From NCBI GenBank assembly GCA_964509005.1, contig CAZDWG010000002.1, forward strand, positions 1 to 26,450: a stretch of DNA of 26,450 bases. Reading direction: 5' to 3'. Below the pieces are notes generated by a model. The model did not search any database and had not been told where the DNA came from. It saw only the letters and a program-made list of their open reading frames with translations. A program made the position numbers and the translations under genes. Source of the stretch: an uncultured Zetaproteobacteria bacterium (lineage in GTDB: Bacteria > Pseudomonadota > Zetaproteobacteria > Mariprofundales > Mariprofundaceae). Below are positions 9,201-26,141 of the stretch, in pieces (the stretch's first letter is position 1; every line of letters begins with the position of its first letter).

Positions 9201-9309
9201 GCGGTGGCGCACGCCAATACAGCCACGCGCCAAGGATGACGAAGCATAGGGTGAGCAATAGTAGTATGCGCCGACATGCGGCGAAAACAGAAGTTAATTT
9301 ACGCGGCAT
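6232..9309 (-). CDS. AsmA-like / YhdP-like (DUF3971/AsmA_2-type) inner-membrane-anchored beta-rich protein
   Basis: 1025 aa with an N-terminal TM anchor (ILLLLTLCFVILGAWLYW), a long amphipathic beta-strand-like body, and an AsmA-type C-terminus ('...ALDMAGSGQINLANGKVNLYMAVRPLQNLD...IPLL..I.LG....VYHVYGPL.NAKI'). Confidence 0.75.
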   Translation of the reverse strand: MPRKLTSVFAACRRILLLLTLCFVILGAWLYWRAPPLDTMRPELESILKQQLDLQKLHLGHLSWRWAGYTWLQADDVSFTGREGQIHVSRANLVIRLSTWEMLTGRLRPLSISIQQGAISLNIPQQAWTGKWALLSSKLNMEDTALSLTYGTLNVRFKHLNLHMDGPDHRLSVQIPGSNLDLTWNKSFEPMSLRARFHNLAWLPAPWRMHLRGKVSGKIALRRDPAKQLWYLQGSLSSTDGARIMQAQGHPWLAFNSIKIKTRLHAKENISHITLLEIEGFNWRSGANALHMAGKWRDGALRMKIDSGTIQLPVLAAWLKPLGNTAWQQWLAGIREGEIRQLKGDITVAQARPWQIPKIEQWEQSHFHMHARIHDASIPLATPNEQLRHLQAIADINEQGLRLKVNHVTLPHKAGEIRGTVAVHDWRHIVFNISGSGNVDIARYQAWRGIDLLPQLVWGKSPATARFSLRWSLYATNPQQGTVELTPNTAWQADLMGRHMRLSGGILRWDAKGNLKLESMHIEHDMFTGTLNLDMRKDQKHAWQLTKLTLQTTADFAKLVDRYHIPLDAPAGKVKARLTFDRSWHLKLDFHDAAWQHLLGSSKTVGEPYLLAMSGESSDHGIKVMNIESSGTAPTIRGSGLLDSDRLSLRLRTIQAPAFTGSINIMDPFNDAPLEINIRSEFLGRAALPDRIPGTLKLTDISAATSKAWVLRGFFSRIQWNAVSMRGVHVQFASSQQGVGSLRAEQLNAAQLSVSNVHAFFRLPGNGVVDIRQLSAKLLGQTLLLSVILSPESGNGLRWKGFANVSGDFSELIHRLDASRLFAGGTMHALWSGEGLLNPKRPWWNGMKGRLRLRSDDGRLLVKDSTMTKLLAALNLTDLPKFLTGKRKDISGKGMFYKRLQLEATVNGEIAHIRQLVIRASALDMAGSGQINLANGKVNLYMAVRPLQNLDAFLRMIPLLRDIILGPANSVFRKVYHVYGPLYNAKIESVSPKAAGLPESGLIERLIHLPGKWFGSEKPLQQTNP

Positions 9310-9331
9310 GGATGTTGTAAGTTAGTTCAGG

Positions 9332-9958
9332 CTAGCTTCGATCCTGTTTCTGCATTTTTTCAACTTTTCTCTTCAACTCAGTGATAAAGCCATTAATCCC
9401 GTTTTGGCTGACCGACTGTCCGAAGTCGGAGCGGAAAGTGCTAACCATGCTGATACCTTCCACCTTGATATCATATATCTTCCATCCTGTTCTTCTGTGT
9501 ACCAGCCGATAGCGCACTGGCGTTCTTTTTTCAGCGTCAACGACAACGGAATCAACGATGGCCACCCGGCCCTTGATTCTTACTTTACCGTACTCAACGG
9601 TTTGATCATGGTATCCGGACAAACGATCACCGTAGGAACGTTCGAGCAGTTCACGGAAGATACCCACAAATTCAGCGCGCTGCGCCTTGTCCATCTTCCT
9701 CCATGGCCTGCCCAGTGAGCGTTTCGCCATTTCGTGGAAGTCAAAGTAAGCCTTTATGGCCTGATGGATGGCTTCGCGATCCTTTATCGTAATGATTTTC
9801 TTGTTTTGTCGCGATTTCAGTATATGAATCACGCCATTCACGGCGGTTTCGACGGCTATTTTCGGAGTATTGACTATGTTTGGAACCGCGGGTTCAGCAA
9901 CGGCAAATGCAGGAAGGGCGATGGCCAGCGTGAATGAGAATAGAAGTGTCTTTAACAT
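9332..9958 (-). CDS. mlaC: Periplasmic phospholipid-binding protein MlaC/Ttg2D
   Basis: Signal peptide; FDFHEMAKRSLGRPW and WKIYDIKVEGISMVSTFRSDF motifs; downstream of mlaD. Confidence 0.9.
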   Translation of the reverse strand: MLKTLLFSFTLAIALPAFAVAEPAVPNIVNTPKIAVETAVNGVIHILKSRQNKKIITIKDREAIHQAIKAYFDFHEMAKRSLGRPWRKMDKAQRAEFVGIFRELLERSYGDRLSGYHDQTVEYGKVRIKGRVAIVDSVVVDAEKRTPVRYRLVHRRTGWKIYDIKVEGISMVSTFRSDFGQSVSQNGINGFITELKRKVEKMQKQDRS

Positions 9959-12518: not shown

Positions 12519-12902
12519 ATGAGAAAAATATTATTGATGGCAGGTGCGCTTGCTTTGGTGTTTACCGTACTGCCGGTATCCAGTGCCCATGCGAGTCCGG
12601 AATCAAAATGTAAGGTATGTCACAATTTCTCAGCTAAAAATAAAGTTGGCCCTGGATTGAAGGGGGTTTTCGGCAGAAAGGCTGGCATGCATCCTGGATT
12701 CAGGTATAAGTTCACGAAGTATATCAAGAAGGGAGGCGGCTGGACGTGGGATGAGGCGCACCTGCGCAAGTGGATACTGAACAGCAAGAAGGCGGTCAAG
12801 GAATTTACCGGCAACAAGAGGGCTAAAACCAAGATGCCGCCACAGCATATGAAAGGTGCCAAGGCCGATGCAATCATTGCATTCTTGAAGGGCTTGAAGT
12901 AA
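12519..12902 (+). CDS. Periplasmic class I (c2-like) monoheme cytochrome c
   Basis: Signal peptide ending AHA; CKVCH; KVGPGLKGVFGRKAG; TKMP Met ligand; GGAGG RBS. Confidence 0.93.
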   Translation: MRKILLMAGALALVFTVLPVSSAHASPESKCKVCHNFSAKNKVGPGLKGVFGRKAGMHPGFRYKFTKYIKKGGGWTWDEAHLRKWILNSKKAVKEFTGNKRAKTKMPPQHMKGAKADAIIAFLKGLK

Positions 12903-12931
12903 TTCTCGTAAAATGACAATAGGAGGGTAAA

Positions 12932-13687
12932 ATGAACGAAGGAATTAAACACTATACTGTACATTGGCATACCAGTCCGTTCCCCATGATGGTGGGATTC
13001 GGTGCGGGTCTATTTTTACCATGGGCTTTTATGCTGCAATTCAACTATACGCAGCCAACCGCCGCGCTGGTTTGTCTGGCTATCGGCGTTGCATTAACCA
13101 TTGCCGGAGGTCTTGGCTGGGCGGGTGAAACGATTGGCGTGATCGACGATGAAGGTTGGGCTCCGTCGGCTATGTTAATGTTTATTGGCACCGAGATTAT
13201 GACCATCGCTGCCATATTGGCTGGCTACTGGGTTGTCCGCTTGGGCGCGACGGTATGGCCGCCCGCCGGCACGCCGAAAATTGATGCCTTAGAGCCTCTC
13301 ATTGCAACCCTTATTCTGATTGCTTCCAGTATCACGATTGGTTTTGCGCGCAAGCGGGAGATTGATGGAGATGCGTCCGGTTTTGTTAAGATGGTATTGC
13401 TGTCCGCTGCGATCTGGGTGGTTTTCATGGTGATGCTCATTTCCAATTGGAGCCATCTGGCAAGTGAGGGCTTTAACATCGGCACGAATGGCTACTCAAC
13501 CGTGCTTTACGGACTTACGGGTATCCATTTTGCTCATGTGGTGATTGGTCTGCTGGTAATGTTGGCCTGCCTGCCGAGCGCCTTTAAGGGCAGGCTGAGC
13601 TTTTCCTACACCCGCGCCATGACCATGTATGTCCACTTCGTCAATGTGCTCGGTCTCTGGGTGCTGTTCCAGGTCTATTACATTTAA
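12932..13687 (+). CDS. coxC: Cytochrome c oxidase subunit III
   Basis: Seven TM segments; HTSPFP, GTE, WPPAGTP and LTGIHFAHV motifs; YVHFVN (canonical YWHFVD). Confidence 0.88.
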   Translation: MNEGIKHYTVHWHTSPFPMMVGFGAGLFLPWAFMLQFNYTQPTAALVCLAIGVALTIAGGLGWAGETIGVIDDEGWAPSAMLMFIGTEIMTIAAILAGYWVVRLGATVWPPAGTPKIDALEPLIATLILIASSITIGFARKREIDGDASGFVKMVLLSAAIWVVFMVMLISNWSHLASEGFNIGTNGYSTVLYGLTGIHFAHVVIGLLVMLACLPSAFKGRLSFSYTRAMTMYVHFVNVLGLWVLFQVYYI

Positions 13688-14623
13688 GTGCGGGCGATTT
13701 TGGCTATGCGATATTCGTTCCTGCCTTCCCTGCGGCACATAGGCATGTTGCGGCGGGACTGGTTTCGGCTAGTTCTGGCTCTGGCCTGCCTGTTTGCGAT
13801 ATTGGGGACTGGAGTGCTCATGTTTCCCGGGACTGCCCAAGCCTCCTATAAATCAACGATGATGGCTCCGACGTCGGAGATTGATCCAGAGGTTTTCCGT
13901 ATCAACGAGGGACATTTTCTGGGTGGAAAGGTTGATGGGAGTTATATACTTCAGGATGCATCCGGGAACAGCTTCAAGCTTGGCGACATGTTTGGCAAAC
14001 CGCTGGTTCTGGTGCTCTCCTACTTTACCTGTGATGGTGCTTGTCCGGTGGTCAACCGTAGGCTAGCCAATACCCTGAAGGGGGTGAATCGCTGGAAACT
14101 TGGTAAGGACTACAATGTCCTGACTGTTTCGTTTGATCGGCATGATACGCCGACAACGATGCGAGCCTTTATGCACGAGATGGGTTTCGGCCAGTTGCCG
14201 AAGGGATGGCGCATGGCAACCATGCGGAACCGGAAGGATATTGACCGGCTTGCCGGTTCAATCGGTTTCAAGTTTTTCTGGTCGCCAAGGGATCGTATTT
14301 TCCTGCATTCGATGGTTTACACTGTGCTTTCGCCCAAGGGCCAGATCGCGCGCTATCTCTATGTTGGGAAAGCGGATTCGTATGATTTTGGTCTGGCGAT
14401 TACCGAAGCCATGGGCGGGGAGATTTCCCCGGCGAACATCATGGATTATGTGGTGGCCGCCTGTCACAGCTACTCCTACAAGGATGGAAAATACAAGCTC
14501 AATATTCCCCTGTTCGTGATGTTTGGCGCGCTTGCGGCTGGAGTGGTGCTGATGGTCGGAGGATTTATGATTGCAAAACGCAAGAGAAAGAGACTCGATA
14601 AGGGTATGATTACTGCGGTATAA
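13688..14623 (+). CDS. SCO1/SenC-family copper chaperone (caa3-cluster type, C-terminal TM)
   Basis: YFTCDGACP CxxxC motif; LTVSFD; FLHS His ligand; ACHSYSYKDGKY followed by a TM helix. Start codon uncertain (GTG 13688 or a later ATG). Confidence 0.85.
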   Translation: MRAILAMRYSFLPSLRHIGMLRRDWFRLVLALACLFAILGTGVLMFPGTAQASYKSTMMAPTSEIDPEVFRINEGHFLGGKVDGSYILQDASGNSFKLGDMFGKPLVLVLSYFTCDGACPVVNRRLANTLKGVNRWKLGKDYNVLTVSFDRHDTPTTMRAFMHEMGFGQLPKGWRMATMRNRKDIDRLAGSIGFKFFWSPRDRIFLHSMVYTVLSPKGQIARYLYVGKADSYDFGLAITEAMGGEISPANIMDYVVAACHSYSYKDGKYKLNIPLFVMFGALAAGVVLMVGGFMIAKRKRKRLDKGMITAV

Positions 14624-14664
14624 GAGTTGTTAGCAGAGAATTATAAAAGCATAGGAGGAAAGAA

Positions 14665-15477
14665 ATGAAAATGAAATCGTTCGTGTATAAGGTGCTGGGA
14701 GCGCTGCTTGCACTGCCTTTGATTCCTACGCTGGTCTATGCATTTCAGATGCAGACAGCGACCAGGAATAATTATGGGGGCTTGACGCCACAGGCTCACT
14801 GGGAGCAGGTGTGGACAGAGGTGATGTGGGACATCACCGTTATCGGCGCGATTTACTTTGTCGTGTCCTTATTCTTTCTATTTAAATACAGGAGGAAAAG
14901 CCATGCTCAGGTTGGCAAATCGCCTAAACTTTCCGCGCAGGCTCTGCTCGGCTGGGTCATCATTCCCTGCATGTTGTTCCTGGGGGATGACCTGTTCCTG
15001 TATGTCAAGGCCTTTGCGCTACACGATCAGATGCGCGAAGTGCCTGCCGATGCCCGGACCATCAAGGTAACCGCCTCCATGTGGAACTGGAATTACGATT
15101 ACGGCAATGGCGTGGACACGGACATGGTGTTGCGCGTGCCGGTTGGAAAGCCGGTCATCTTTCGCATGACCAGTGACGATGTTATCCATTCCCATTATCT
15201 GGATGGTTACCACGAGACCGAGGATGTGATGCCGGGCCGTGTGACCTGGGAATGGTTCATGCCGGTCAAGCTTGGCACGTCGGTGATTACCTGCCGTGAA
15301 TACTGCGGTGCGAATCACTCCAAGATGTACGCCAAGCTTATCGTGATGAAACAGGCCGATTACGATGCCTGGATGACGAAGGCCAAGGCCGAGTCGAAAG
15401 CCGATTCGGGCCATCAGCTTGCCATGACCACTAAAGCAGAGATAACAAGCAACAGGAATAAAGGAGGAAAGCTATGA
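14665..15477 (+). CDS. coxB: Cytochrome c oxidase subunit II (CuA, no fused heme c)
   Basis: Signal peptide, two TM helices, DVIHS and CREYCGANHSKM CuA ligands; ATGA overlap with coxA. Confidence 0.93.
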   Translation: MKMKSFVYKVLGALLALPLIPTLVYAFQMQTATRNNYGGLTPQAHWEQVWTEVMWDITVIGAIYFVVSLFFLFKYRRKSHAQVGKSPKLSAQALLGWVIIPCMLFLGDDLFLYVKAFALHDQMREVPADARTIKVTASMWNWNYDYGNGVDTDMVLRVPVGKPVIFRMTSDDVIHSHYLDGYHETEDVMPGRVTWEWFMPVKLGTSVITCREYCGANHSKMYAKLIVMKQADYDAWMTKAKAESKADSGHQLAMTTKAEITSNRNKGGKL

Positions 15478-17156
15478 CTGGTGAAACATTTATGGGTTTT
15501 GTAGGACATGAGCCAAACGGCAAGCCCGGTTGGCCGAAAACAGCCAAGGAGTGGTTGTTCACGCTTGACCACAAGGTCATTGGCATCTGGTATCTGATCG
15601 GCGCTCTTGCAGCTTTTGCTGTGGCTGGTATTTGTGCCATGTTGATGCGTATCCAACTGGGCAGCCTCGGCCCGACTCTCACTGGCGATGGTAACGTCTA
15701 TAACCTGTGGCTGACCATGCATGGGGCGGTGATGATTCTGGGATTCCAGATTCCGGCATTGCTGGGTTTTGTTGCCAACTATGCCGTACCCATGATGATC
15801 GGGGCCAAGGATATGGCCTTTCCGCGCGTCAATGCGTTGAGCGTATGGTTGTTGTGGTCGGGTATTCTTCTGGCCTTGGCCAATCTGGTGATCCCCGATC
15901 ACTTCAACGGTATGTGGACCGGTTATCCGCCGTATTCCGAGACGTCTATGGCGGGTAATACGGCACTGTATTCATCGGTGGTCGTTGTGCTGGGCATGGC
16001 ATCCGTATTCGGTGCGGTGAATCTGGCCTGTACGGTGGCCTTCATGCGCTGTAAGGGTATGGGTTGGTTTCAGATGCCGATGACCTGCTGGGGCGTGTTC
16101 ACGGCCAATATCATCCAGTTGATCTTTGTGCCAGTACTGGCTGCTTCGGTGTTGCTGCTGTCAATGGACAAGTATCTGGGCTTCGGCTTCTATAATCCGG
16201 ATTTGGGTGGTGACGTGCTGCTGTATCAGAACCTGTTCTGGTTCTATTCGCATCCGGCCGTGTATGTGATTTTACTGCCGTTCGTGGGGCTCATTTTCGA
16301 GATATTCTCGGTGTCATCTAAAAACATGGTCTTCAGCTACAAAGCGACGGTCTTTGCCGTGCTGGCTTTTATTCCGGCTAGCGCCGATGTCTGGGCGCAT
16401 CATGCCTTCGTAGCGGGTTTGCCGGGTTGGTTCAATTTGCTGATGTCGTTCACCTCGCTGCTGATTTCATTGCCCTTTGGCCTGTTGATGCTCAGTATGG
16501 TGGGTACGCTATACAAGGGTGCTATCCACTATTCCGGTCCGATGATCTGGGCTCTGGGTGCCTGGGTGATGCTTATTTTAGGCGGTTTGACCGGCATTCC
16601 AAACGCCCTCGCCGCCGTGGACTACGGCATCTCGGATTCCTACGCCATCATGAGTCACTTTCACTATGTCATGGCGATAGCCGGCACCATGGCCACCTTT
16701 GGAGCTATATTCTACTGGTTCCCGAAGATGACCGGGCGCGTATGCAACGAAATGCTGACTAAGCTCTCGGGCATTGGTTTCTTTATCGGCATGAATGTGG
16801 TAATGGCACCGCTGTATATCGCCGGTGTCGCGGGTATGCCGCGCCGCTATATGGATTATCAACAGTTTGCCAATAATGCCACCATCGTTGATGCGCAGCA
16901 CATCGCCACGATGGGTGCCTATATCACTTTCGTCAGTGTGTTACTGACGCTGGTGGCGTGGATTCACGGCATGCTCAAGGGTGAGAAGTCATCGCAGAAC
17001 CCTTGGGGATCACAATCGCTGGAATGGACGTCTACCGCGCTTGTTGCCGGGCAAGGTAATTTCCCGACTCCGGTGGAGGTTGCCAAAGACTGGCATCCGT
17101 ACAACTACATCAACAATCCGAAGCCGACGTTCCAGCCTCACCCGGCGGAGGGCTAA
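15474..17156 (+). CDS. coxA: Heme-copper oxidase subunit I, family A type A2 (YSHPAVY), K-channel residues absent
   Basis: All six His ligands (TMHG, H260 in YSHPAVY, H309/H310 in VWAHH, H395/H397 in HFH), cross-link Tyr264, GMPRRY, and D-channel D113 in GAKDMAFPRVN. Confidence 0.93.
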   Translation: MTGETFMGFVGHEPNGKPGWPKTAKEWLFTLDHKVIGIWYLIGALAAFAVAGICAMLMRIQLGSLGPTLTGDGNVYNLWLTMHGAVMILGFQIPALLGFVANYAVPMMIGAKDMAFPRVNALSVWLLWSGILLALANLVIPDHFNGMWTGYPPYSETSMAGNTALYSSVVVVLGMASVFGAVNLACTVAFMRCKGMGWFQMPMTCWGVFTANIIQLIFVPVLAASVLLLSMDKYLGFGFYNPDLGGDVLLYQNLFWFYSHPAVYVILLPFVGLIFEIFSVSSKNMVFSYKATVFAVLAFIPASADVWAHHAFVAGLPGWFNLLMSFTSLLISLPFGLLMLSMVGTLYKGAIHYSGPMIWALGAWVMLILGGLTGIPNALAAVDYGISDSYAIMSHFHYVMAIAGTMATFGAIFYWFPKMTGRVCNEMLTKLSGIGFFIGMNVVMAPLYIAGVAGMPRRYMDYQQFANNATIVDAQHIATMGAYITFVSVLLTLVAWIHGMLKGEKSSQNPWGSQSLEWTSTALVAGQGNFPTPVEVAKDWHPYNYINNPKPTFQPHPAEG

Positions 17157-17171
17157 AGCTCGGGCCAGAGG

Positions 17172-17214
17172 ATGCGCACCCTCACCTCCCTTGCTCCGGG
17201 GTGCGCATTCTTTT
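17172..17214 (+). terminator. Probable intrinsic terminator after coxA
   Basis: Perfect 10-bp stem ATGCGCACCC (17172-81)/GGGTGCGCAT (17199-208) followed by TCTTTT. Confidence 0.6.
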
Positions 17215-17225
17215 GGGCGCGGAAA

Positions 17226-17239
17226 TTGATTCAGGTCAA
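17226..17239. promoter_or_regulatory. FNR-like box TTGAT-TCAG-GTCAA upstream of heme O synthase
   Basis: 9/10 match to the FNR consensus. It lies right after the terminator, with an AT-rich TAACAAT at 17262-68, about 30 bp from the box centre as in class II FNR promoters. Confidence 0.6.
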
Positions 17240-17328
17240 TGCCCGTGTTGGCGGTTAATGTTAACAATCATTGCTAAGGAAAATACGGGGAATCAAGAAG
17301 TACGCGATGCAGACTGTGGAGGACTTCA

Positions 17329-18240
17329 ATGCGAGAAGAATTGCTGAAAATGAAACATACCTCAATTGGTGAAGGCTACCGAACGAAGGCTGCTTCCGCT
17401 GAATTGTTCGAGTTGGCGAAACCCGGCATTGTCGGTTTGACGCTGGTGGCCGCATTGACGGGGGTTTATTTTGGTAATCATGGTGTGATGCCGCACTGGA
17501 ATCTCATCTTCTGGACCTTTCTGACACTGGGGCTGGCAACAGCCGGATCCTGCATGCTTAACAACTATTATGACCGCGACATAGATCAGTTGATGCGCCG
17601 TACCAAATCACGGGTGCTGGCTGCGGGGTTGGTCTCCGAACGGGTCGTACTGTATGTAGGGCTGCTATTGGTGATTCTACCGCTTGCCTTGATGGCTTGG
17701 AGGGTCAATCCGTTAGCTGCTTTGGTTACGGCAGTCGGCGTGATTGGCTACGTTGGTGTTTATACCATGTGGATGAAACGCACAACGCCGTGGGCCAATC
17801 AGTTCGGTGGTATTGCCGGTGCTGTACCTCCAATGGTTGGTTACGCTGCGGTAACGGGCGATCTAGGTGCTCCAGCATGGGTTTTGTTTGCTATTATGGT
17901 GATCTGGCAACAGCCGCATGCCTTGAGTCTGGCATTGAAATATCGTGAGGATTATGCCCGCGCCAATGTGCCGGTCATTCCCGTGGCCTGCGGCGTGCAG
18001 GCGACAAAAGTGCGCATCGCTGTGTATGCGCTTGCCTTGATTCCCGTGGCCATGCTGCCCTATGTGTTCGATATGGCAGGCATCTGGTATCTGGTAATTT
18101 CTGGATTGTTGAGTTCCATGTTCCTGTTCATGGCCGTGCGTTTTCTGCGTTCGGAACGGGATTGCGACATGCGCGTGTTCGCCTTTTCCATCGTGTATCT
18201 GATTCTTTTGTTTGGTGCGATGGTGATTGACTCGATATAA
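17329..18240 (+). CDS. ctaB: Protoheme IX farnesyltransferase (heme O synthase)
   Basis: ELAKPGIV, NNYYDRDIDQLMRRTKSR, YTMWMKRTTPW..GG.AGA.PP, WQQPH..SLA; GGAGG RBS. Confidence 0.95.
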   Translation: MREELLKMKHTSIGEGYRTKAASAELFELAKPGIVGLTLVAALTGVYFGNHGVMPHWNLIFWTFLTLGLATAGSCMLNNYYDRDIDQLMRRTKSRVLAAGLVSERVVLYVGLLLVILPLALMAWRVNPLAALVTAVGVIGYVGVYTMWMKRTTPWANQFGGIAGAVPPMVGYAAVTGDLGAPAWVLFAIMVIWQQPHALSLALKYREDYARANVPVIPVACGVQATKVRIAVYALALIPVAMLPYVFDMAGIWYLVISGLLSSMFLFMAVRFLRSERDCDMRVFAFSIVYLILLFGAMVIDSI

Positions 18241-18366: not shown

Positions 18367-18912
18367 ATGAAACGTATCGCGTTCTGCCTGTCCGTTTGCG
18401 TCACCATCTTTTTGTTTGTCGGCTTGGCATGTGCCGAAGCAGGTGTGAAACAGGGATCCGATCAGCAAATTTATAAACGGGCCATGAACCTTGCCAGGAA
18501 GAAAAACACTGCGGATGCGGCCATGTTGTTTCGGCAGGTCGGCGAGAAAGGGAACAGGCGAGCCCAATATCAACTGGGTCTGTTGTATGCGCGTGGCGAC
18601 GGTGTGCAAAAAAATCTGGTAAAGGCGAGAGCATGGCTACGCAAGGCTGCGATGCAGGGTCATCCCAAGGCACAATTTTATCTTGGTCAGATGTATGTGT
18701 TTGGTGACGGGGGCAAGAAGGATAATGTGAAGGCGACCACATGGTTCTGGCTTGCCAAGACGCTCGGCGATCGTTTTGCCGGGGATAGCCTGAAGGTCAT
18801 GATCGGCAAGGATTCTCCGCGTGAGCTGGCCGAAGCGAAAGAGCGGGCTAAAGTCTTATGGCGGAAAATACCGCACGATATGAAAATTAAACGCAGCCCG
18901 GCGATGCATTGA
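18367..18912 (+). CDS. Secreted Sel1-like repeat protein
   Basis: Signal peptide; two Sel1 repeats (AQYQLGLLYARGDGVQKNLVKARAWLRKAAMQG; AQFYLGQMYVFGDGGKKD..KATTWF). Confidence 0.88.
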   Translation: MKRIAFCLSVCVTIFLFVGLACAEAGVKQGSDQQIYKRAMNLARKKNTADAAMLFRQVGEKGNRRAQYQLGLLYARGDGVQKNLVKARAWLRKAAMQGHPKAQFYLGQMYVFGDGGKKDNVKATTWFWLAKTLGDRFAGDSLKVMIGKDSPRELAEAKERAKVLWRKIPHDMKIKRSPAMH

Positions 18913-18942
18913 TAATGGCGTTAGCCGAAAGAAGGATAAAAC

Positions 18943-19065
18943 ATGAATAATCAACTTATGGAAGAGAAGCGAAGAGAGCGCAAAAAGGTTATCGGAGGCC
19001 TGGTGCTCAGTCTCATTGTCTTTGCATGGTTTCTGTATTACTTGCTTGCCCATATCCCGGGCTGA
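18943..19065 (+). CDS. 40-aa single-pass membrane peptide, CoxF-like small oxidase assembly protein
   Basis: Own translation MNNQLMEEKRRERKKVIGGLVLSLIVFAWFLYYLLAHIPG; AAGGA RBS; basic stretch then one TM helix; fills the gap exactly and converges on the next gene. Confidence 0.6.
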   Translation: MNNQLMEEKRRERKKVIGGLVLSLIVFAWFLYYLLAHIPG

Positions 19066-19075
19066 TTCGCAGCAT

Positions 19076-19633
19076 TCAGGCGCTTTTGCGAATACCCAGT
19101 TGATACTCCGTGGCACCATCCGGATGATAGATTTCCAGAGCCGGCAGCACCAGTGTGTAATGATGCGTTTTTGCCCATTTTTTCATGGCCTGATAGGCTT
19201 TGTATGAGCCGAGCAGCCTCCCTCCGGAGAATGTCGCGGTGATAACTTCTCGTCCTGGAAATGTTTCTTCGCTAAGTGTCGCGGGCACAACATCACTATA
19301 TTTAAGCAAATATCCGACCTTGGCCCGGCGCTGACTTTCAGGCGTTTTGCCGATATCGTCGAGAAACAGGGCGCAGGGTGTCTTTGTTTTGATGCCAGCT
19401 TTTTTCAGATACTCCTCAGCCTTTCTAATGGAAGGTTCGATGGTGTTATAGGCGCCGGTATGAAACAAATAGGCGATACGGTAGGAAGGAACAGAAGCCT
19501 GAACAACCGTAACTTTGGAAAACATTCCCAGATAATACAGAACCCCGGTACCGCCAAAGACCGTCGTGAGCAATCCGACAAGGATGATGCCGATAAGTTT
19601 ATTGGATAGACGTTGTGATTGTTCCGGTGGCAT
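19076..19633 (-). CDS. Membrane-anchored GyrI-like small-molecule-binding domain protein
   Basis: N-terminal TM; AYLFHTGAYNTI; VITATF.G; KAYQAMKKWAKTHHY...ALEIY pattern. Confidence 0.7.
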   Translation of the reverse strand: MPPEQSQRLSNKLIGIILVGLLTTVFGGTGVLYYLGMFSKVTVVQASVPSYRIAYLFHTGAYNTIEPSIRKAEEYLKKAGIKTKTPCALFLDDIGKTPESQRRAKVGYLLKYSDVVPATLSEETFPGREVITATFSGGRLLGSYKAYQAMKKWAKTHHYTLVLPALEIYHPDGATEYQLGIRKSA

Positions 19634-19719: not shown

Positions 19720-20301
19720 ATGGTACATGAAATTCCGCCACGTAGATCACAGTCGAGGTTATTGATGGATATAAGTCAAGTACCGAAAAAGAAGCGGGTG
19801 AACGTAGGTCTTTTCCTCCTGGTCGCAGCAGTGGCAACACTGGTGGTCGGGTCGTTTGCCCTGAAAGTAATCACCAGTAGGCCGAATATAAAAGTGACCA
19901 CACGGGAAATCACCCGTGCAGAACGGGCTGGATTCAAGAAAAAGGTCGATCAGATGGTGGCGCGTTATACGGTCCGCATGGAAGGGGGCATGCCCATTGT
20001 CCATCCACCGGGAGGTTCCGATATTTATTTATTGGCGCGTAATTATGATTGGGGAAAGTATATCCTTGAACTGGAAAAAGGGAAACCATACCGTCTGCAT
20101 CTGGCAAGTCTGGATATGCGCCATGCTATTGTAGTGCATGAACTGAAACTGATGAACCGCATTAAACCCGATGAGTTCAAGGTGATTGAATTTACGCCCG
20201 AAAAGGTGGGACGTTTCAAACTAATCTGTGGCGAATGGTGTGGTCCGGGGCACGCCAGCATGGTGGGCACGATTATTGTCGTCGGGTCTGCCGTCAAATA
20301 A
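19720..20301 (+). CDS. Second CuA-containing subunit II, single TM (B-family/NOR-associated type)
   Basis: One TM helix; YRLHLASLDMRH; CGEWCGPGHASM complete CuA ligand set. Confidence 0.85.
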   Translation: MVHEIPPRRSQSRLLMDISQVPKKKRVNVGLFLLVAAVATLVVGSFALKVITSRPNIKVTTREITRAERAGFKKKVDQMVARYTVRMEGGMPIVHPPGGSDIYLLARNYDWGKYILELEKGKPYRLHLASLDMRHAIVVHELKLMNRIKPDEFKVIEFTPEKVGRFKLICGEWCGPGHASMVGTIIVVGSAVK

Positions 20302-20303
20302 GC

Positions 20304-20897
20304 TTAATTCTGGGGGTCTCTTCCCAGCCTGAACATTTCCCTCAATGTCTCATGACCTTTGAACTTGTGCATCAGGGCCATTCCGGCATGCCCGGCCACG
20401 AAGATCCACATCATCGTGGCCATGATGCTATGGCATTCCCAAATAATCTTGACATCGGGGGGAATTTCCCCATGGGGTCCGACGCCGAGGAATAACATAG
20501 ACCCGGTGAATCCCAGGAGGAGCGCAAGGGTGATGCCTGTTCCATGAATTGCGCCGGAAATAAAATGACTTTCCCCGGGGGAAGGGAGTTTGCCATGCAG
20601 CCAGCCCGGGATATCCCGGCGCATTTCCAGCCAGAGCTTATGACGTCCTGACGCATTCATCCACGGAAACAACCGTTCCCGGCCAGCGGCTTCATCCAGG
20701 ACTACGATTAAATAAACACAAACAAGGATTAAAGAGATTAAACCGATACCTTCATGAATACCGATAAAAAGTGTTTCAATAACATCTCTGGCATGGTCGG
20801 GCTGCGGAAAGCCCACTAGTTTTTCACCAAACAGTTGCAACAGTATGGATAGTACGATGCCAAAGTGCAGGACGCGGGTGGTGCGATCATATTTCAT
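20304..20897 (-). CDS. Cytochrome b561 / CybB-like diheme cytochrome b
   Basis: Start reassigned to ATG 20897 (MKYDRTTRVLHFG); four TM helices with His in RVLH, GIHE, ECHS, AGHAGMALMH. Confidence 0.82.
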   Translation of the reverse strand: MKYDRTTRVLHFGIVLSILLQLFGEKLVGFPQPDHARDVIETLFIGIHEGIGLISLILVCVYLIVVLDEAAGRERLFPWMNASGRHKLWLEMRRDIPGWLHGKLPSPGESHFISGAIHGTGITLALLLGFTGSMLFLGVGPHGEIPPDVKIIWECHSIMATMMWIFVAGHAGMALMHKFKGHETLREMFRLGRDPQN

Positions 20898-21038
20898 GGA
20901 CTGAATAGTGGCATAAATAGGTATCGCGGGAAACCGAAAGGCTGACCTGTGTGGATGACACGTACGATAAATCTGCTGCATCGGGGAAAAGCCGGTGCTA
21001 GGGTTCGCCGCGCAATTCACGTATAAAGGATACATCTT

Positions 21039-22427
21039 ATGACAACAAAATATTCACTTCCGCTTGACGATGAGCCACAGACCAGGCTTGCAGCCGCCTG
21101 GTTATGCGTTGCGGTGGGTTTCCTGCTGGCTTCCGGTATTTATCCGCTTTTATTAGCATTGGCGCGTACTACTTATGCCATGCCATGGGATGATTTTTTC
21201 TATACTGCCCTGGTGCTGCACGTCGATTTCACCGTATTGTGGTGGTTGCTTGCCATCGCAGGGGTCTTCTGGAGCCTGAATTCAACCGACCGCGCGGCGC
21301 CATCCGGGTGGATTGCGCTGACGTTGGTCGTGGTCGGCGGGGTCCTGACCGCTATTTCACCACTCACCAATGCCGCCAACCCGTTGACCAATAATTACGT
21401 GCCTATACTGGAGAACCATTATTTTATTAAGGGTATGATCGTATTTGGTGGCGGTATTTTACTGTTAGTACTGGGCACGCTCTACGCCGCTCCGATGCGA
21501 GCCATATTCACGCCGAATCGTGAAGGAGCAATGCGCTTCGGCATCTGGACTGCCGCGATTGCCACGTTGATTGCCATACTGGCCCTGATTTGGGCTCTGA
21601 TTCACATGCCTTCAGGGTTGGAGCACCGGGCTTATTATGAACCCCTGTTCTGGGCTAGCGGTCATGTGATTCAGTTCGCGCATACGGCGTTGCTGTGTGT
21701 CTGCTGGTTGTGGCTTGCAAGCGCCTGCGGCACTGGGATTTCCATCAGGCCCAGCCTGGTGATGGCCGTGTTCGCCATCAGTGTCATCCCGCTGCTATTT
21801 GTCTTCATGCCCTTTGCGCAATATGGCGTGAATACACCAGGTTTTACGCTGTGGTTTGTAAAGCTGATGCGCGACGGCAACGGTATTGCACCGCTGGTCA
21901 TCGGTCTGGCGGTTATGTGGGGCCTCGTCAGGAGCGGGGCACCGACGAAGGATCAGCGACACCTGTATCTGGCATTGTTGTTCTCGATGGTTCTGTTTGC
22001 CACGGGTGGTATTCTGGGGCTGTATATTAGCACAAGCAGTACGCTGATCACGGCCCATTATCACGGTGTGATTGTCTCGGTGACCATGGCTTTTATGGCC
22101 ATGACCTATTTCTGGTTGCCACGATTCGGGTTTACCACGCCCAATCTGAAATGGGCCAGGATTCAGGTCTGTGTCTATGCTTCGGGGCAGATGATCCACA
22201 TCATCGGCCTGGCCTGGGGCGGGGGGTATGGCATGAAACGCAAGGTGGTTGGTACCGCTCAGGATATTGGCGTCCACACGTGGGTTACGCCGCAGGATCT
22301 GGTCGGTTTTGGCGGCGTAATCGCCGTGCTCGGCGGAATTTTATTCGCAATCGTAGTGTTGCCCGTCATGTTTAAGGGGCGCAACAGAAAGGGAAACGAT
22401 GAAAAGCATTGCGAGGGGGAGTTATGA
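21039..22427 (+). CDS. Heme-copper oxidase subunit I-fold protein lacking the CuB His-His pair and cross-link Tyr
   Basis: R43 after TM1, VLH61VD, YEPLFWASGH209VIQF, TAH340YH342G, GMKRKV; no HH in the helix VII region. Confidence 0.75.
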   Translation: MTTKYSLPLDDEPQTRLAAAWLCVAVGFLLASGIYPLLLALARTTYAMPWDDFFYTALVLHVDFTVLWWLLAIAGVFWSLNSTDRAAPSGWIALTLVVVGGVLTAISPLTNAANPLTNNYVPILENHYFIKGMIVFGGGILLLVLGTLYAAPMRAIFTPNREGAMRFGIWTAAIATLIAILALIWALIHMPSGLEHRAYYEPLFWASGHVIQFAHTALLCVCWLWLASACGTGISIRPSLVMAVFAISVIPLLFVFMPFAQYGVNTPGFTLWFVKLMRDGNGIAPLVIGLAVMWGLVRSGAPTKDQRHLYLALLFSMVLFATGGILGLYISTSSTLITAHYHGVIVSVTMAFMAMTYFWLPRFGFTTPNLKWARIQVCVYASGQMIHIIGLAWGGGYGMKRKVVGTAQDIGVHTWVTPQDLVGFGGVIAVLGGILFAIVVLPVMFKGRNRKGNDEKHCEGEL

Positions 22428-23458
22428 ACAGTATTGAAACCCGTAATGACAGGCAAATCGCCATTTGGTTGCTATGCGTCTGCGCCGCGATTTTTGTGAT
22501 GCTGGTGGTGGGCGGTGCGACCCGGCTAACGCACTCGGGACTTTCAATGGTGCAATGGAACCCCTTGATGGGCTGGATTCCGCCACTTTCCGAATCTCAA
22601 TGGATGAACTCATTCGGGCATTACCAACAGACACCGGAGTTCTATAAATTGAATCCGAATATGAACCTGGCGGGCTATAAGGGAATTTTTCTGCTGGAAT
22701 ACATCCACCGCGTGTGGGGGCGTTTGATCGGGTTTATTTTCCTGCTCCCCTTTCTTTATTTTCTGGTGGTTGGAAAGGTCAGACGAGAATTGCGTCCCAG
22801 ACTGATCATCATGTTTGTCCTTGGCGGTTTACAGGGGTTGCTCGGTTGGTACATGGTCAAAAGTGGTCTGGTGGATAACCCGCATGTCAGCCAGTACCGG
22901 CTTACGGCTCACCTGACAATGGCTTTCATCATTTATGGCTTTATTTTCTGGGTAGCTATGGGGCTCCTGCTCCCACGCACGGATGTCGCACTGGAAGATG
23001 TCACACCCTTACGACGCCTTGCGCTGGCGCTCACGGGCTTGATTGCCGTAACCGTGATGGCCGGTGGTTTTGTGGCGGGCTTGAGGGCGGGCTTCGCCTA
23101 TAACACGTTTCCGTTGATGAACGGTCATTTCATCCCTGAAGGTTATGCCATGCTCAGACCCTTCTATCTCAACTTCTTTGGGAATATTGCCGCAGTTCAA
23201 TTCGATCACCGCCTGCTGGCTGAAACAACGGTGTCATGCGTTGCCGTGCTGTGGTGGTATGCCCGGCGCTTTGATCTCTCAAAGCGGGCCAGTCTGGCCT
23301 TCAACCTGCTGCTTACAGCGGTACTGATCCAGTTTTTACTGGGGGTATCCACGCTACTTCTGGTCGTTCCTGTCTGGTTGGGTGTGACACACCAGGCGGG
23401 TGCCATGCTTCTCTTCACAGCTACGTTATTTACCAATTACACACTGCGCCGGAGTTGA
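22424..23458 (+). CDS. ctaA: Heme A synthase, type 2 (Cox15-like)
   Basis: GGATRLTHSGLSM..W.P, EYIHR..GR, LQGLLGWYMVKSGL, RLTAHL, FDHR, THQAGA. ATG 22424 forms an ATGA overlap with the upstream stop. Confidence 0.95.
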   Translation: MNSIETRNDRQIAIWLLCVCAAIFVMLVVGGATRLTHSGLSMVQWNPLMGWIPPLSESQWMNSFGHYQQTPEFYKLNPNMNLAGYKGIFLLEYIHRVWGRLIGFIFLLPFLYFLVVGKVRRELRPRLIIMFVLGGLQGLLGWYMVKSGLVDNPHVSQYRLTAHLTMAFIIYGFIFWVAMGLLLPRTDVALEDVTPLRRLALALTGLIAVTVMAGGFVAGLRAGFAYNTFPLMNGHFIPEGYAMLRPFYLNFFGNIAAVQFDHRLLAETTVSCVAVLWWYARRFDLSKRASLAFNLLLTAVLIQFLLGVSTLLLVVPVWLGVTHQAGAMLLFTATLFTNYTLRRS

Positions 23459-23462
23459 TGAC

Positions 23463-24809
23463 ATGAAAAACGGCGGATTACGAAGCGTGGCCCTTCTGGC
23501 AGGTATGTATTCACTGCGTATGCTTGGCTTGTTCATGATTTTACCTGTATTTGTACTGTATGCCGAACATTTCCACGATAGTACGCCCATGCTTACAGGG
23601 CTGGCCCTGGGCGCCTATGGCTTGACCATGGCGCTGTTTCAGATCCCGTTCGGCATGCTGTCGGATCGCTTTGGGCGGAAACCTGTGATCGCCGCAGGAT
23701 TGCTTATTTTTGCGCTGGGCGGGGTGGTTGCAGCCCTGTCGAATTCCATCATGGGCGTGATTATCGGGAGGCTGTTGCAGGGTTCCGGCGCCATCGCCGC
23801 AGCTGTGATGGCCTTGATTGCCGATTTGACCGATGAAACCCAGCGCACAAAAGCCATGGCTGTTTTCGGCATGGGTATCGGTGCTTCCTTTACTCTGGCC
23901 CTTATTCTCGGACCCATCATCAGCGTCCACATTGGGGTCGCCGGTCTGTTCTGGCTTGCCGCTTCATTTGGCGTGATCGGCATCGCCATACTCTATCTTT
24001 TTGTGCCGGATCCGGGGCAAAGCCATATGCACCGCGACGTTGAAGCTGAACCGGTACAGTTGAAAAAAATGTTATCTAACCTACAGTTGTTACGCTTGGA
24101 TTCAGGTATCTTTTTTCTCCACATGATGATGACCGCCACGTTTATTTCCCTGCCATTCGCTCTGCGCAATGTAGGCCTGCCAACACAGGAGCAAGTCTGG
24201 TTTTATCTTCCCGTTCTGCTGGTTTCCGTGGTCGGTATGGTTCCCTTGATTATCGTGGCCGAGAAATACCGGAAGATGAAGCAGGTATTTACAGCGTGCA
24301 TTGCTGCTCTGGTCGTAGCTGAAGGGGTGCTGGCGTTGGCGCACCATTCCATGGTCGGCCTGGTGGCGGGTACATTCATCTACTTCGTGGCATTCAACAC
24401 GCTGGAAGCCAGCCTTCCATCTCTGGTGTCGCGTATGGCACCGGCGGCGGGGAAAGGAACGGCCATGGGGATCTATTCCACGTCCCAGTTCTTCGGCGTG
24501 TTCTGCGGGGGGATTACGGGTGGCGTGATGTACGGATCTTTTGGTGTTGGCGGCGTGTTTCTGGGGGGCACGGGGATTGCTCTGGTCTGGCTGCTCACAT
24601 GTCGCGGTATGCATTTTCCTATGCATCTGACGAGGCAGGTGGTTCCTGTCGGCAGTCTGGATCAGGAGGAAGCCAATGCGCTTGCAGAAAAAATACACCA
24701 GATCAGTGGCGTAGAGGAAGTCACCGTGGTTCCTGAAGAAGGGGAAATTTATCTGAAAGTGGACAAAAGCCGATATCAACCGGATGCGATAGCTGACTTG
24801 CTCAAGTGA
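23463..24809 (+). CDS. YajR-like MFS transporter with C-terminal soluble domain
   Basis: SLRMLGLFMILPVF, QIPFGMLSDRFGRKP, EASLPSLVSR, GTAMGIYSTSQF.G.F.GG; C-terminal ISGVEEV.VVPEEGEIYLKVD domain. Start taken at ATG 23463. Confidence 0.85.
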   Translation: MKNGGLRSVALLAGMYSLRMLGLFMILPVFVLYAEHFHDSTPMLTGLALGAYGLTMALFQIPFGMLSDRFGRKPVIAAGLLIFALGGVVAALSNSIMGVIIGRLLQGSGAIAAAVMALIADLTDETQRTKAMAVFGMGIGASFTLALILGPIISVHIGVAGLFWLAASFGVIGIAILYLFVPDPGQSHMHRDVEAEPVQLKKMLSNLQLLRLDSGIFFLHMMMTATFISLPFALRNVGLPTQEQVWFYLPVLLVSVVGMVPLIIVAEKYRKMKQVFTACIAALVVAEGVLALAHHSMVGLVAGTFIYFVAFNTLEASLPSLVSRMAPAAGKGTAMGIYSTSQFFGVFCGGITGGVMYGSFGVGGVFLGGTGIALVWLLTCRGMHFPMHLTRQVVPVGSLDQEEANALAEKIHQISGVEEVTVVPEEGEIYLKVDKSRYQPDAIADLLK

Positions 24810-24947: not shown

Positions 24948-25550
24948 TTATCGGGCTGAGGCCCAGCGCAGCCAGTGGCGAATTGCACCTGCGATGTCTT
25001 TTGGTTTGCTGCTGTGAGCCATCAGTTTACCTATACTGCCATCCGGTTGGACAATGATGATGAATGACGCATGGCTGACAACATAGTTGCCTTTTTTATC
25101 CACAGGTTCCTTTTTGTAGCCGGATAAAAAAGATTTTGCGGCAGCTTTGATTTCTTTCGCACTCCCGCTTAATCCCAGAATATGGGAATCGAAATGGTGA
25201 ACGTATTTTGCCATCACCTCAGGGCTGTCGCGGGCCGGGTCCGTGGTAATAAACACAGGGAAAACCTTGGCTAGTTCATCCGGGTTCAGCAATTTGAGGG
25301 CGCTTCCCATCCTTAATAATGTGCCAGGGCAGACATCGGGGCAGTGGGTATAGCCAAAGTAGATGACACCAACCTTACCCAGCATATCTTTGGAGGTAAC
25401 CGAGCCATCAACACTGTGCAAGGAAAATTTCCCGTGGATATAGGGGTAAGGACTGGCTGGCATTTTGTTCAGATTGTAGACGCCGAAACCAATAAACAAC
25501 GCAGCCAGTCCGAGAAGGATAAAAGGAAAAATATTATGCTTGATATTCAT
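24948..25550 (-). CDS. SCO1/SenC-family copper chaperone (canonical type)
   Basis: N-terminal TM; YFGYTHCPDVCP; FITTDPARD; YVVSHAS His ligand. Confidence 0.93.
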   Translation of the reverse strand: MNIKHNIFPFILLGLAALFIGFGVYNLNKMPASPYPYIHGKFSLHSVDGSVTSKDMLGKVGVIYFGYTHCPDVCPGTLLRMGSALKLLNPDELAKVFPVFITTDPARDSPEVMAKYVHHFDSHILGLSGSAKEIKAAAKSFLSGYKKEPVDKKGNYVVSHASFIIIVQPDGSIGKLMAHSSKPKDIAGAIRHWLRWASAR

Positions 25551-25614
25551 GAATAGGCCGACTCCGCTGATGGTTTGATATGCGAGTTTCCGACAAAAAT
25601 TATACTGGTCATGA

Positions 25615-26022
25615 TCATTTAAACTGTTTCAAATATTGGATGATTGCGGCGCGGTCTTTTGCGGATTTAATGCCCGGCATGGCCATCATCGTTCTGGGTT
25701 TGATTGCCGACGGGTTTTGTATCCACAGGTCCAGTGTTTTTTCGTCCCATTTTGAAAAGGGTACGCCTGATATGGTGGGCGTACGGCCAACGATGCCTTT
25801 CAGAGTGGGGCCTACTTTGGTGATATTTCTGTCTAGAAAATGACATGGGCTACAATTTTTTCGTGTCAGTTTAGCACCGGGAAGAGATTCTCTTTTAAAG
25901 TCATGAATGGCTGCATTAAAGGCTGTATTAATATCGCTTGATGATTGTCCTTTCTCGCTTTGGCTGCATGCGATCACGCTAGCCGCCAGTATGATCGTCA
26001 GCATTCTAAGTAAATGACACAT
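25615..26022 (-). CDS. Lipoprotein-anchored class I cytochrome c
   Basis: Start ATG 26022 with GGAAGGA RBS; VIAC lipobox; CSPCH; KVGPTLKGIVGR; TMMAMPG Met ligand. Confidence 0.85.
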   Translation of the reverse strand: MCHLLRMLTIILAASVIACSQSEKGQSSSDINTAFNAAIHDFKRESLPGAKLTRKNCSPCHFLDRNITKVGPTLKGIVGRTPTISGVPFSKWDEKTLDLWIQNPSAIKPRTMMAMPGIKSAKDRAAIIQYLKQFK

Positions 26023-26141
26023 AATGTTCCTTCCCAGTGATAACGCTTGTGACGGGCGATACCATATTCGATGTACTTTCTTTCGCCCAAGATTTGTACC
26101 CCCGATTGTAACATCATAGATTCGGTTAATGAAACACATAT

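Follow-up and report, generated by a model that had tools for sequence, protein, structure and literature searches.

This analysis concerns a gene pair on a 26,450-nucleotide stretch of DNA from an uncultured member of the Zetaproteobacteria (assembly GCA_964509005.1, contig CAZDWG010000002.1; hereafter the window), in which a protein resembling the catalytic subunit of heme-copper oxidases is encoded directly in front of ctaA, the gene for heme A synthase. We refer to this 462-amino-acid (aa) protein as T, and to its form in the window, which is paired with a canonical CtaA, as T1. The pair comprises the following features.

21039-22427, forward strand: T1, a paralogue of heme-copper oxidase subunit I without the CuB site, 462 aa (from open reading frame, Pfam, alignments and structural model)
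22413-22427, forward strand: coupling junction, a Shine-Dalgarno-like GAGGGGGAG followed by ATGA, with overlapping stop and start codons
22424-23458, forward strand: ctaA, heme A synthase (PF02628, 351.7 bits, full length), the only ctaA found in the genome

An AAGGA ribosome-binding site at 21026-21030 lies 8 nt 5′ of the T1 start. The ATG of ctaA (22424-22426) overlaps the TGA stop codon of T1 (22425-22427), with the purine-rich GAGGGGGAG just before it, and the ATGA overlap reported in the original prediction for this locus is real.

The copper-less subunit I fold of T

The kinship of T1 to oxidase subunit I is far beyond chance, because the subunit I family PF00115 matches the protein over its full length (58.6 bits, E 6.5e-16; cut-off 34.8 bits), a search that the original prediction had proposed as a check, and because a confident structural model finds its closest matches among subunit I proteins. 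The AlphaFold2 model, built from 88 family members, has a predicted local distance difference test score (pLDDT) of 91 and a predicted template modelling score (pTM) of 0.92, and confidently predicts the 12-helix fold of oxidase subunit I; its top 50 structural matches in the PDB are all subunit I of A- and B-family oxidases (TM 0.61-0.73). At the level of sequence, T1 by itself retrieved only spurious antibody light-chain matches from the PDB, and a first family profile had no match there at E 0.01. A deeper family profile gave a sole match, to the heme-copper terminal oxidase 7deg_A (E 1.4e-4).

Every residue that had been listed as a landmark of subunit I (R43, H61, YEPLFWASGH209, H340/H342 and GMKRK402) was found in the T1 translation, in which the two longer motifs span Y200-E-P-L-F-W-A-S-G-H209 and G398-M-K-R-K402 and the heme-ligand motif reads H340-Y-H342. 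Judged from the sequence, H61 and H342 would be the ligands of a low-spin heme, H340 the ligand of a high-spin heme, H209 a lone helix VI His and R401/K402 the propionate pair. In the 7deg_A alignment, H209 falls on the helix VI copper ligand, F213 on the cross-link Tyr, H340/H342 on the heme ligands of the GHFH motif and R401/K402 on the Arg-Arg propionate pair. H61, H340 and H342 are invariant in 97 aligned sequences, as is Y120, and the three His residues align with the ligands of 7deg_A, of A2-type COX1 and of subunit I of eNOR (eNOR I), a nitric oxide (NO) reductase that arose from B-family oxidases (Murali et al., 2024, PMC11214002). The residues invariant in 88-97 family members are R43, H61, W205, G208, H209, Q212, M277, H340, Y341, H342, R401 and K402, whilst N119, M277, Y341, Q384 and H387 are invariant residues specific to T, of which Q384 and H387 are confined to the clade linked to CtaA. 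As a marker of heme A, R43 was rejected: it occurs also in eNOR I, in 7deg_A and in the T3 relatives from genomes without CtaA that are described below.

The copper site of the oxidases is lost in T. There is no His between residues 215 and 308 of T1. In an L-INS-i alignment the helix VII His-His pair of eNOR I falls on P258/F259, as originally predicted, and in the hidden Markov model (HMM) alignment to 7deg_A it falls two residues later, on A260/Q261, where there is no His either. The residues at this position vary across the family, being Pro/Phe in Zetaproteobacteria and Ile/Tyr in most other members, so that a Tyr259 is found in most members outside the Zetaproteobacteria. At H209+4, where Phe had been predicted in place of Tyr, T1 has F213, and Phe is aligned with it in 86 of 90 sequences of the main T clade (23 + 2 + 61) and in all three T3 sequences. 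Two of the three metal ligands and the cross-linked active-site Tyr are lost throughout the family, leaving H209 alone of the three CuB His residues, although the T3 subfamily keeps one helix VII His. A hidden alternative three-His site, which had been named as an outcome that would overturn the prediction, was rejected by alignment: outside Zetaproteobacteria H215 is not conserved, H387 belongs to helix XI, and there is no further invariant His to complete such a site. Because the remaining conserved His residues are too few for another such site, the copper-less state is an old and stable family trait rather than a recent decay. Heme binding by T is predicted from sequence and fold, and the earlier proposal, an oxidase scaffold that has lost catalysis but could still bind two hemes, agrees with the sequence, the fold and the pattern of conservation.

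Among catalytic proteins, eNOR I is the nearest relative of T, as its sister group. T1 aligns with it over the full length (BLASTP 59 bits, 24% identity), as against 33 bits and the C-terminal part only for the A2-type subunit I of its own window. The two have R43, H61, Y120, W205, H209, Q212, H340/H342 and R401 in common, and both are usually partnered by a single-helix CuA protein, which in eNOR is subunit II; T is ∼100 residues shorter. Q212, one residue before the Tyr position, is common only to T and eNOR I. Whereas eNOR I has three His metal ligands and a Gln at the Tyr position (Hemp and Gennis; PMC8756737), T has lost the His-His pair and has Phe in place of that diagnostic Gln. The B-family oxidases (7deg_A, and Thermus ba3, 1xme/3s8f) resemble T in structure (Foldseek TM 0.66-0.70), with colinear landmarks in helices II, VI and X, and differ in having the CuB site and the cross-link Tyr. 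Next to the active site, 7deg_A has a Val where T has Q212, presumably the equivalent of ba3 V236.

In a maximum-likelihood tree rooted on the A2-type subunit I of the window, eNOR I branches first, followed by the small T3 subfamily and then by the main T clade (Shimodaira-Hasegawa-like approximate likelihood ratio test support, SH-aLRT, 99). The main clade includes the orthologue from Ferrigenium bremense (L036). Within it, T1 and a second zetaproteobacterial form, T2, make up a clade (support 98) that is nested among members from eNOR operons. The family is large: a full HMMER search at E ≤ 1e-30 returned 848 clusters at 50% identity, so that the family numbers at least 848. More than 100 zetaproteobacterial proteins are 58-87% identical to T, and remoter relatives 37-44%. 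With one genome taken per species, at least 575 carriers were counted, including Gallionella, Ferrigenium, Nitrosomonadales, Burkholderiales, Sedimenticola, Thiotrichales, Nitrospirota and Magnetococcales, and all carriers seen are microaerophiles or denitrifiers. In the groups tested, the main T clade is found solely in genomes with a heme A synthase. Decay into a pseudogene, which the original prediction had considered as a possible refutation, is effectively refuted because the family is conserved: hundreds of genomes carry an intact frame, and residues that never vary number in the dozens.

The family has already been noticed and named in a preprint, yet is neither described nor explained there. 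The member from Ferrigenium straubiae (IMG 2878407321) is called the ‘eNOR scaffold protein’, with no function given, and is annotated as COX1 (KO K02274); it is transcribed, and was detected in the proteome at 28.0 as compared with 31.6 for eNOR I/II, on the scale of the table itself (bioRxiv 10.64898/2026.01.22.701106). The preprint contains no description of a lost copper site. Nor is the T family described in Murali et al. (2024; PMC11214002), in its preprint or in a review of the COX operons of iron oxidisers. T1 belongs to the same family and clade as the COX1-like Ferrigenium protein, the gene for which lies at the end of an eNOR operon, beside cytochrome b-FeS genes. T1 differs in its setting: its genome, which is 85% complete, has no detectable eNOR operon, and the gene stands beside the cluster of an A2-type O2 reductase, with a CuA cupredoxin of its own and a canonical ctaA.

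Linkage to heme A synthase in Zetaproteobacteria

T is present in 38 of 133 Zetaproteobacteria genomes, and CtaA in exactly those 38. The compared genomes are mutually related, and many are incomplete metagenome-assembled genomes (MAGs). For 50 of the 51 T copies in them, ctaA lies directly downstream on the same strand, according to a manual pairing of coordinates; the one exception is cut off by the end of its contig. No T::CtaA fusion was seen among the best 150 representatives of the family search.

Two modules can be distinguished in these genomes. In the first, T1 (600-665 bits to the family profile) accompanies a canonical CtaA (∼325-364 bits where the gene is complete) and an A2-type oxidase, with which T1 shares a contig in most assemblies; orthologues of the A2 subunit I occur in 32 of the 38 genomes. 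In the second, T2 (545-567 bits) adjoins a divergent CtaA (95-120 bits) in an eNOR operon, in the order cupredoxin, eNOR I, SCO-like protein, two cytochrome b-FeS proteins, a protein of 167-170 aa, T2 and CtaA. T1 and T2 form one clade and are 43% identical, yet their CtaA partners are only 23% identical. Duplication of a single T-CtaA pair was rejected on these figures. Since one clade of T is joined to two very different synthases, the adjacency has been kept or re-made, and this speaks for a link in function and not for gene order passed down by descent. Comparative genomics therefore strongly supports the earlier suggestion that T is a partner of CtaA. The gene-neighbourhood survey that had been proposed together with it found ctaA, CuA subunit II and NOR-type subunit I genes all recurring near T.

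The other features of the window are as follows.

12519-18240, forward strand: presumed client oxidase cluster, with cytochrome c, COX3, an SCO-like protein, CuA subunit II, A2-type subunit I and ctaB
13688-14623: SCO-like protein of this cluster, 311 aa, with only 31 bits to SCO1/SenC
18367-19633: Sel1-repeat protein and GyrI-like small-molecule-binding protein, between ctaB and the cupredoxin
19720-20301, forward strand: single-helix CuA cupredoxin with a complete C-x-E-x-C-x3-H-x2-M motif
20304-21035, reverse strand: cytochrome b561-type membrane cytochrome (PF01292), divergent from T1
23463-24809, forward strand: major facilitator superfamily (MFS) transporter with a YajR-type, YAM-like C-terminal domain; likely ATG 5 nt past the ctaA stop
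24948-26139, reverse strand: SCO1/SenC copper chaperone (24948-25550) and cytochrome c

The subunit I gene of the oxidase cluster (15474-17156) carries FWFYSHPAVY and WAHH motifs; its A2-type label rests on a YS motif, which we take to be characteristic of that type. T is surrounded by assembly genes, such as those for heme O synthase and SCO, rather than adjoining the structural genes. The order T1-ctaA-MFS is conserved across Zetaproteobacteria loci, as is the SCO1/SenC and cytochrome c pair 3′ of the module. The true start of the b561 gene is probably M47, near 20897, which leaves ∼140 nt for both promoters.

At least 27 Zetaproteobacteria genomes have an orthologue of the window cupredoxin (46-82% identity) 0.1-5.4 kb upstream of T1 and on its strand, in about ten of them directly adjacent to it. 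These orthologues are distinct from eNOR subunit II (33-39% identity), which the window protein nevertheless resembles, being 35% identical to zetaproteobacterial eNOR II. As a universal partner of T the cupredoxin was rejected, as it is missing from other A-type contexts (L014, L070). CuA is a purely electron-transfer centre.

The source genome, an 85%-complete MAG, encodes, besides T and the A2 oxidase, a cbb3 oxidase and a single ctaA. A search for expression data returned no RNA run. Searches of the genome for eNOR I, Surf1 and Cox11 were negative, so that the absence of Surf1 and Cox11 first reported for the window holds for the genome at this completeness. Public records name T a cbb3-type subunit I (CcoN), the mis-annotation that had been anticipated. 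This identity was rejected: the ccoN model TIGR00780 does not match T1, T groups with eNOR I, and the genuine ccoN/ccoO pair of the genome lies on another contig.

Several further observations were made on these genomes. The SCO-like protein at 13688-14623 has relatives in A2-type oxidase clusters and eNOR operons, and is separate from the SCO1 at 24948-25550. The arrangement of Sel1 and GyrI-like genes is kept in four other Zetaproteobacteria loci (L001, L003, L004, L005). Three Zetaproteobacteria genomes with neither CtaA nor T (G021, G022, G037) encode a remote A-type subunit I, 33-37% identical and with open frames of up to 781 aa, and may carry a heme O/B-type oxidase. At 493-4296 the window encodes a 1267-aa protein with DUF3683, FAD-linked oxidase, 4Fe-4S, CCG and DUF3400 domains, which has a YhdP-like gene and an Mla lipid-transport operon as neighbours and seems to have no connection with T.

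Loci in other lineages, fusions and Surf1

Outside the Zetaproteobacteria, 73 loci from other lineages were surveyed. The usual gene order is cupredoxin, eNOR I, heme O synthase-like protein, SCO-like protein, cytochrome b-FeS protein, a protein of ∼183 aa (L023) and T, followed by another cytochrome b-FeS gene or a CtaA-like gene. An oxidase-type subunit I is present in 50 of the 52 loci that have at least 6.5 kb of upstream sequence, and a cytochrome b-FeS gene in 62 of the 73.

The cytochrome b-FeS proteins that flank T in these 62 loci are fusions (L023:5775-7451; L087:6651-8177 and 8312-9886) of a cytochrome b of bc1/b6 type with two [4Fe-4S] domains and an FlpD/MvhD-like domain. By analogy with the mitochondrial ferredoxin that serves Cox15, they might be electron donors for heme O/A synthesis; a different role, quinol:NAD+, is put forward for them in the Ferrigenium preprint (bioRxiv 10.64898/2026.01.22.701106). 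The protein of ∼170-183 aa (L023:7387-7938; L087:9883-10386) has an N-terminal hydrophobic stretch and no Pfam match. Its gene lies directly 5′ of T, often overlapping it, in 56 of the 73 eNOR-type loci and is absent from the window; the 167-170-aa protein before T2 is its homologue.

Of 151 sampled Gallionellaceae genomes, 17 encode both a main-clade T and eNOR I, and none encodes only one of the two; each of these 17 has two CtaA genes, and eight more genomes have CtaA without T. The T3 subfamily occurs in Gallionellaceae genomes without CtaA, at the following loci.

L089:7-6481: T3 locus
L090:1888-9410: T3 locus
L091:2198-9728: T3 locus
L092:7222-10951: T3 locus

Three of the four share the operon multiheme cytochrome c, ResB, CcsA, T3 and CcmH-like TPR protein, and in these loci, where T3 is unfused, the end of the CcsA gene overlaps the start codon of T3. 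In L092, ResB and CcsA are accompanied by a T3::TPR fusion; a multiheme cytochrome c was not found in that stretch.

Fusions of T link it to both kinds of neighbour. A cytochrome b::T fusion of 761 aa occurs on two contigs, next to nirS (L093:2-2287). A T::heme O synthase (UbiA) fusion of 748 aa was seen once (L094:2629-4875), in an operon of subunit II, subunit I, T::UbiA and SCO1, and there are at least seven fusions of T with a CcmH/CycH-like TPR. T-type proteins thus recur beside, coupled to or fused with CtaA, CtaB and CcsA, three membrane enzymes that handle heme close to the outer face of the membrane, and recur also beside the electron carriers CuA, b561 and cytochrome b-FeS.

Surf1 partners CtaA/Cox15 in the delivery of heme A. 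It was found in none of the 133 Zetaproteobacteria genomes. In the Gallionellaceae sample it is present in all eight genomes that have CtaA without T and in none of the 17 with T, a partition that by hand calculation would arise by chance once in 1,081,575 cases, a figure in which the kinship of the genomes overstates their independence. T as a general replacement for Surf1, or as mutually exclusive with it, was nevertheless rejected, as 8 of 10 other, diverse T-bearing genomes have Surf1. In Noviherbaspirillum, Surf1 lies beside the canonical ctaA although T is present. The two genomes without Surf1 (G137 and G290, one from Magnetococcales and one a Nitrospirota MAG) have T in an A-type oxidase cluster. 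The pattern is consistent with each heme A enzyme operon bringing its own helper, Surf1 for the classical aa3 oxidase and T for eNOR and these A2-type clusters. T would then be a possible functional analogue of Surf1/Shy1, with a complementary distribution in Zetaproteobacteria and Gallionellaceae. It has no homology to the SURF1 domain (PF02104) and no relation in fold to Surf1, which consists of two helices and a periplasmic domain, and the two coexist in many genomes.

A proposed role for T in heme maturation

T1 is most likely neither an oxidase nor an NO reductase, but the paralogue of a catalytic subunit turned accessory of the heme O/heme A branch. More generally, T is probably a biogenesis accessory linked to CtaA rather than a terminal enzyme. 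Of the original prediction, the disarmed scaffold and the partnership with CtaA have stood; it listed several functions and chose none. Beyond its reach lay the large family that usually resides in eNOR operons, the CuA and cytochrome b partners that point to a redox role, and the name given in the preprint.

We infer heme binding, contact between T and CtaA, the direction of electron flow and the hand-off of heme A from sequence, predicted fold and gene context. Our proposal, put forward tentatively and with rather less than even confidence, is that T is a redox-active, heme-binding maturation accessory of CtaA with a hand-off site for heme. T1 would be made in step with CtaA through translational coupling and would dock to it in the membrane. 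Its low-spin, bis-His heme (H61/H342) would be a permanent cofactor that takes electrons from a neighbour, namely the CuA cupredoxin and/or b561 in the window and cytochrome b-FeS proteins in eNOR operons. The second pocket, which has lost copper and kept H340, H209 and Q212, would accept heme O/A as Cox1 does, keep it reduced and hand it on to the real subunit I (A2-type, 15474-17156). The attraction of a redox-active heme-maturation accessory is that it covers both sets of neighbours, the heme enzymes and the electron carriers. It is supported by the invariant heme ligands and propionate pair, the Surf1 pattern, the recurrent redox partners, the fusions and the linkage to ctaA.

Such a scheme would resemble the NifEN scaffold of nitrogenase. 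NifEN is a paralogue of nitrogenase NifDK that acts as a scaffold for cofactor maturation. The likeness is conceptual, in that a disarmed paralogue of a catalytic subunit is encoded with cofactor biosynthesis genes and would combine a permanent redox cofactor with a transit site; the protein and the cofactor are unrelated. That an oxidase-subunit paralogue became the heme counterpart of NifEN, feeding respiratory electrons to CtaA through its own CuA cupredoxin or cytochrome b whilst holding nascent heme A, is an appreciable possibility that we hold with a little more reserve than the general scheme.

Several points weigh against a role of this kind. The kinship of the genomes makes the co-occurrence counts overstate independence. 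Outside the Zetaproteobacteria, only 38 of the 73 loci have a CtaA or CtaA-like gene within 8 kb, and T is tied more closely to eNOR, cytochrome b-FeS and the 183-aa protein than to CtaA. The wider family is not specific to heme A, because the T3 relatives live in genomes that lack CtaA, and T coexists with Surf1 in 8 of 10 other genomes, so that it is no general substitute for it. An exchangeable heme is hard to reconcile with the subunit I fold, in which the hemes are buried and tightly ligated, and to our knowledge CtaA works elsewhere without a T-like partner.

T might alternatively be an electron relay only, a stable di-heme membrane cytochrome through which electrons of CuA, cytochrome b or quinol reach CtaA, CtaB and CcsA, and which never carries a heme for delivery. 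All three enzymes need ferrous heme or reducing equivalents, mitochondrial Cox15 needs ferredoxin, and both heme sites of T are as conserved as permanent cofactor sites would be. The dedicated cupredoxin beside T1 in at least 27 genomes, the adjoining b561 gene, the cytochrome b-FeS-FlpD proteins in 62 of 73 loci and the cytochrome b::T fusion on two contigs would likewise be expected of a relay. The strict invariance of the distal residues G208, H209 and Q212 around a presumed five-coordinate heme would, however, be superfluous for plain electron transfer, the complementarity with Surf1 would be a coincidence, and canonical CtaA is generally known to work in hosts without T. We consider a pure relay possible but unlikely.

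Conversely, T might be a passive chaperone or store whose Cox1-like pockets receive heme A from CtaA and later give it up to nascent subunit I, as a non-redox and non-homologous substitute for Surf1/Shy1. The linkage of T to ctaA, the existence of a T::heme O synthase fusion and the identity of its fold with that of the final heme A acceptor would agree with this, as would the fact that Surf1 is missing in all Zetaproteobacteria with T, in the 17 Gallionellaceae that have T and in the two genomes with T in an A-type cluster (G137, G290). Passivity leaves the conserved CuA and cytochrome b partners and the cytochrome b fusion unexplained, and known heme chaperones bind heme at exposed sites, not at buried bis-His sites. 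With T3 relatives occurring without any CtaA and with T and Surf1 coexisting in 8 of 10 other genomes, we regard a purely passive role as improbable.

A little more doubtful still is a working two-subunit enzyme or gas-binding module, in which the CuA cupredoxin and T, with a heme-only site flanked by distal His/Gln and, in most members outside the Zetaproteobacteria, by Tyr259, would have O2, NO or peroxide as ligand or substrate and might, for example, detect O2 or provide it for CtaA when oxygen is low. The subunit II-like CuA partner adjoining T1 is conserved, the former binuclear pocket is lined by the invariant residues H209, Q212 and W205, of which Q212 is common to eNOR I, and a role in gas binding would suit the microaerophilic or denitrifying habit of all carriers seen. 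It is at odds with the rest of the superfamily, of which no known member turns over substrate without a second metal (Murali et al., 2024, PMC11214002). The position of T among assembly genes, the cupredoxin-less A-type contexts (L014, L070) and the lower proteome score of the Ferrigenium homologue relative to eNOR I/II (28.0 against 31.6) also speak against it.

A permanent, non-catalytic pseudo-subunit that stabilises an eNOR or A2 oxidase complex or supercomplex, unrelated to heme A synthesis, would account for the perfect co-occurrence of T with eNOR I in the Gallionellaceae sample (17 of 17), for the published label of ‘scaffold protein’ and for detection in the same proteome as eNOR I/II. 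It is very unlikely, as T1 is kept in genomes that lack eNOR, its translational coupling is to ctaA and not to structural genes, and T is found fused to heme O synthase and to parts of cytochrome c maturation. That T is a decaying or functionless duplicate of an oxidase gene, as the lost catalytic ligands might suggest, can be dismissed in view of the intact frames in hundreds of genomes, the 58-87% identity within Zetaproteobacteria, the dozens of invariant residues, the 848 clusters at E ≤ 1e-30 and a homologue that is both transcribed and detected as protein.

Two questions about heme A in bacteria bear on T, namely the source of electrons for heme A synthase and the route by which heme A reaches subunit I without Surf1. 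As it recurs next to redox proteins and three different heme-processing enzymes, T is a concrete candidate for both roles. If the proposed heme-maturation role holds, T would be the first identified electron donor and acceptor partner of a bacterial heme A synthase, and would represent a new class of oxidase assembly factor. T genes labelled as ‘cbb3-type oxidase subunit I’ or ‘COX1’ inflate the counts of terminal oxidases in iron- and sulfur-oxidising bacteria, among them the Zetaproteobacteria, whose oxygen niches are inferred from oxidase inventories.

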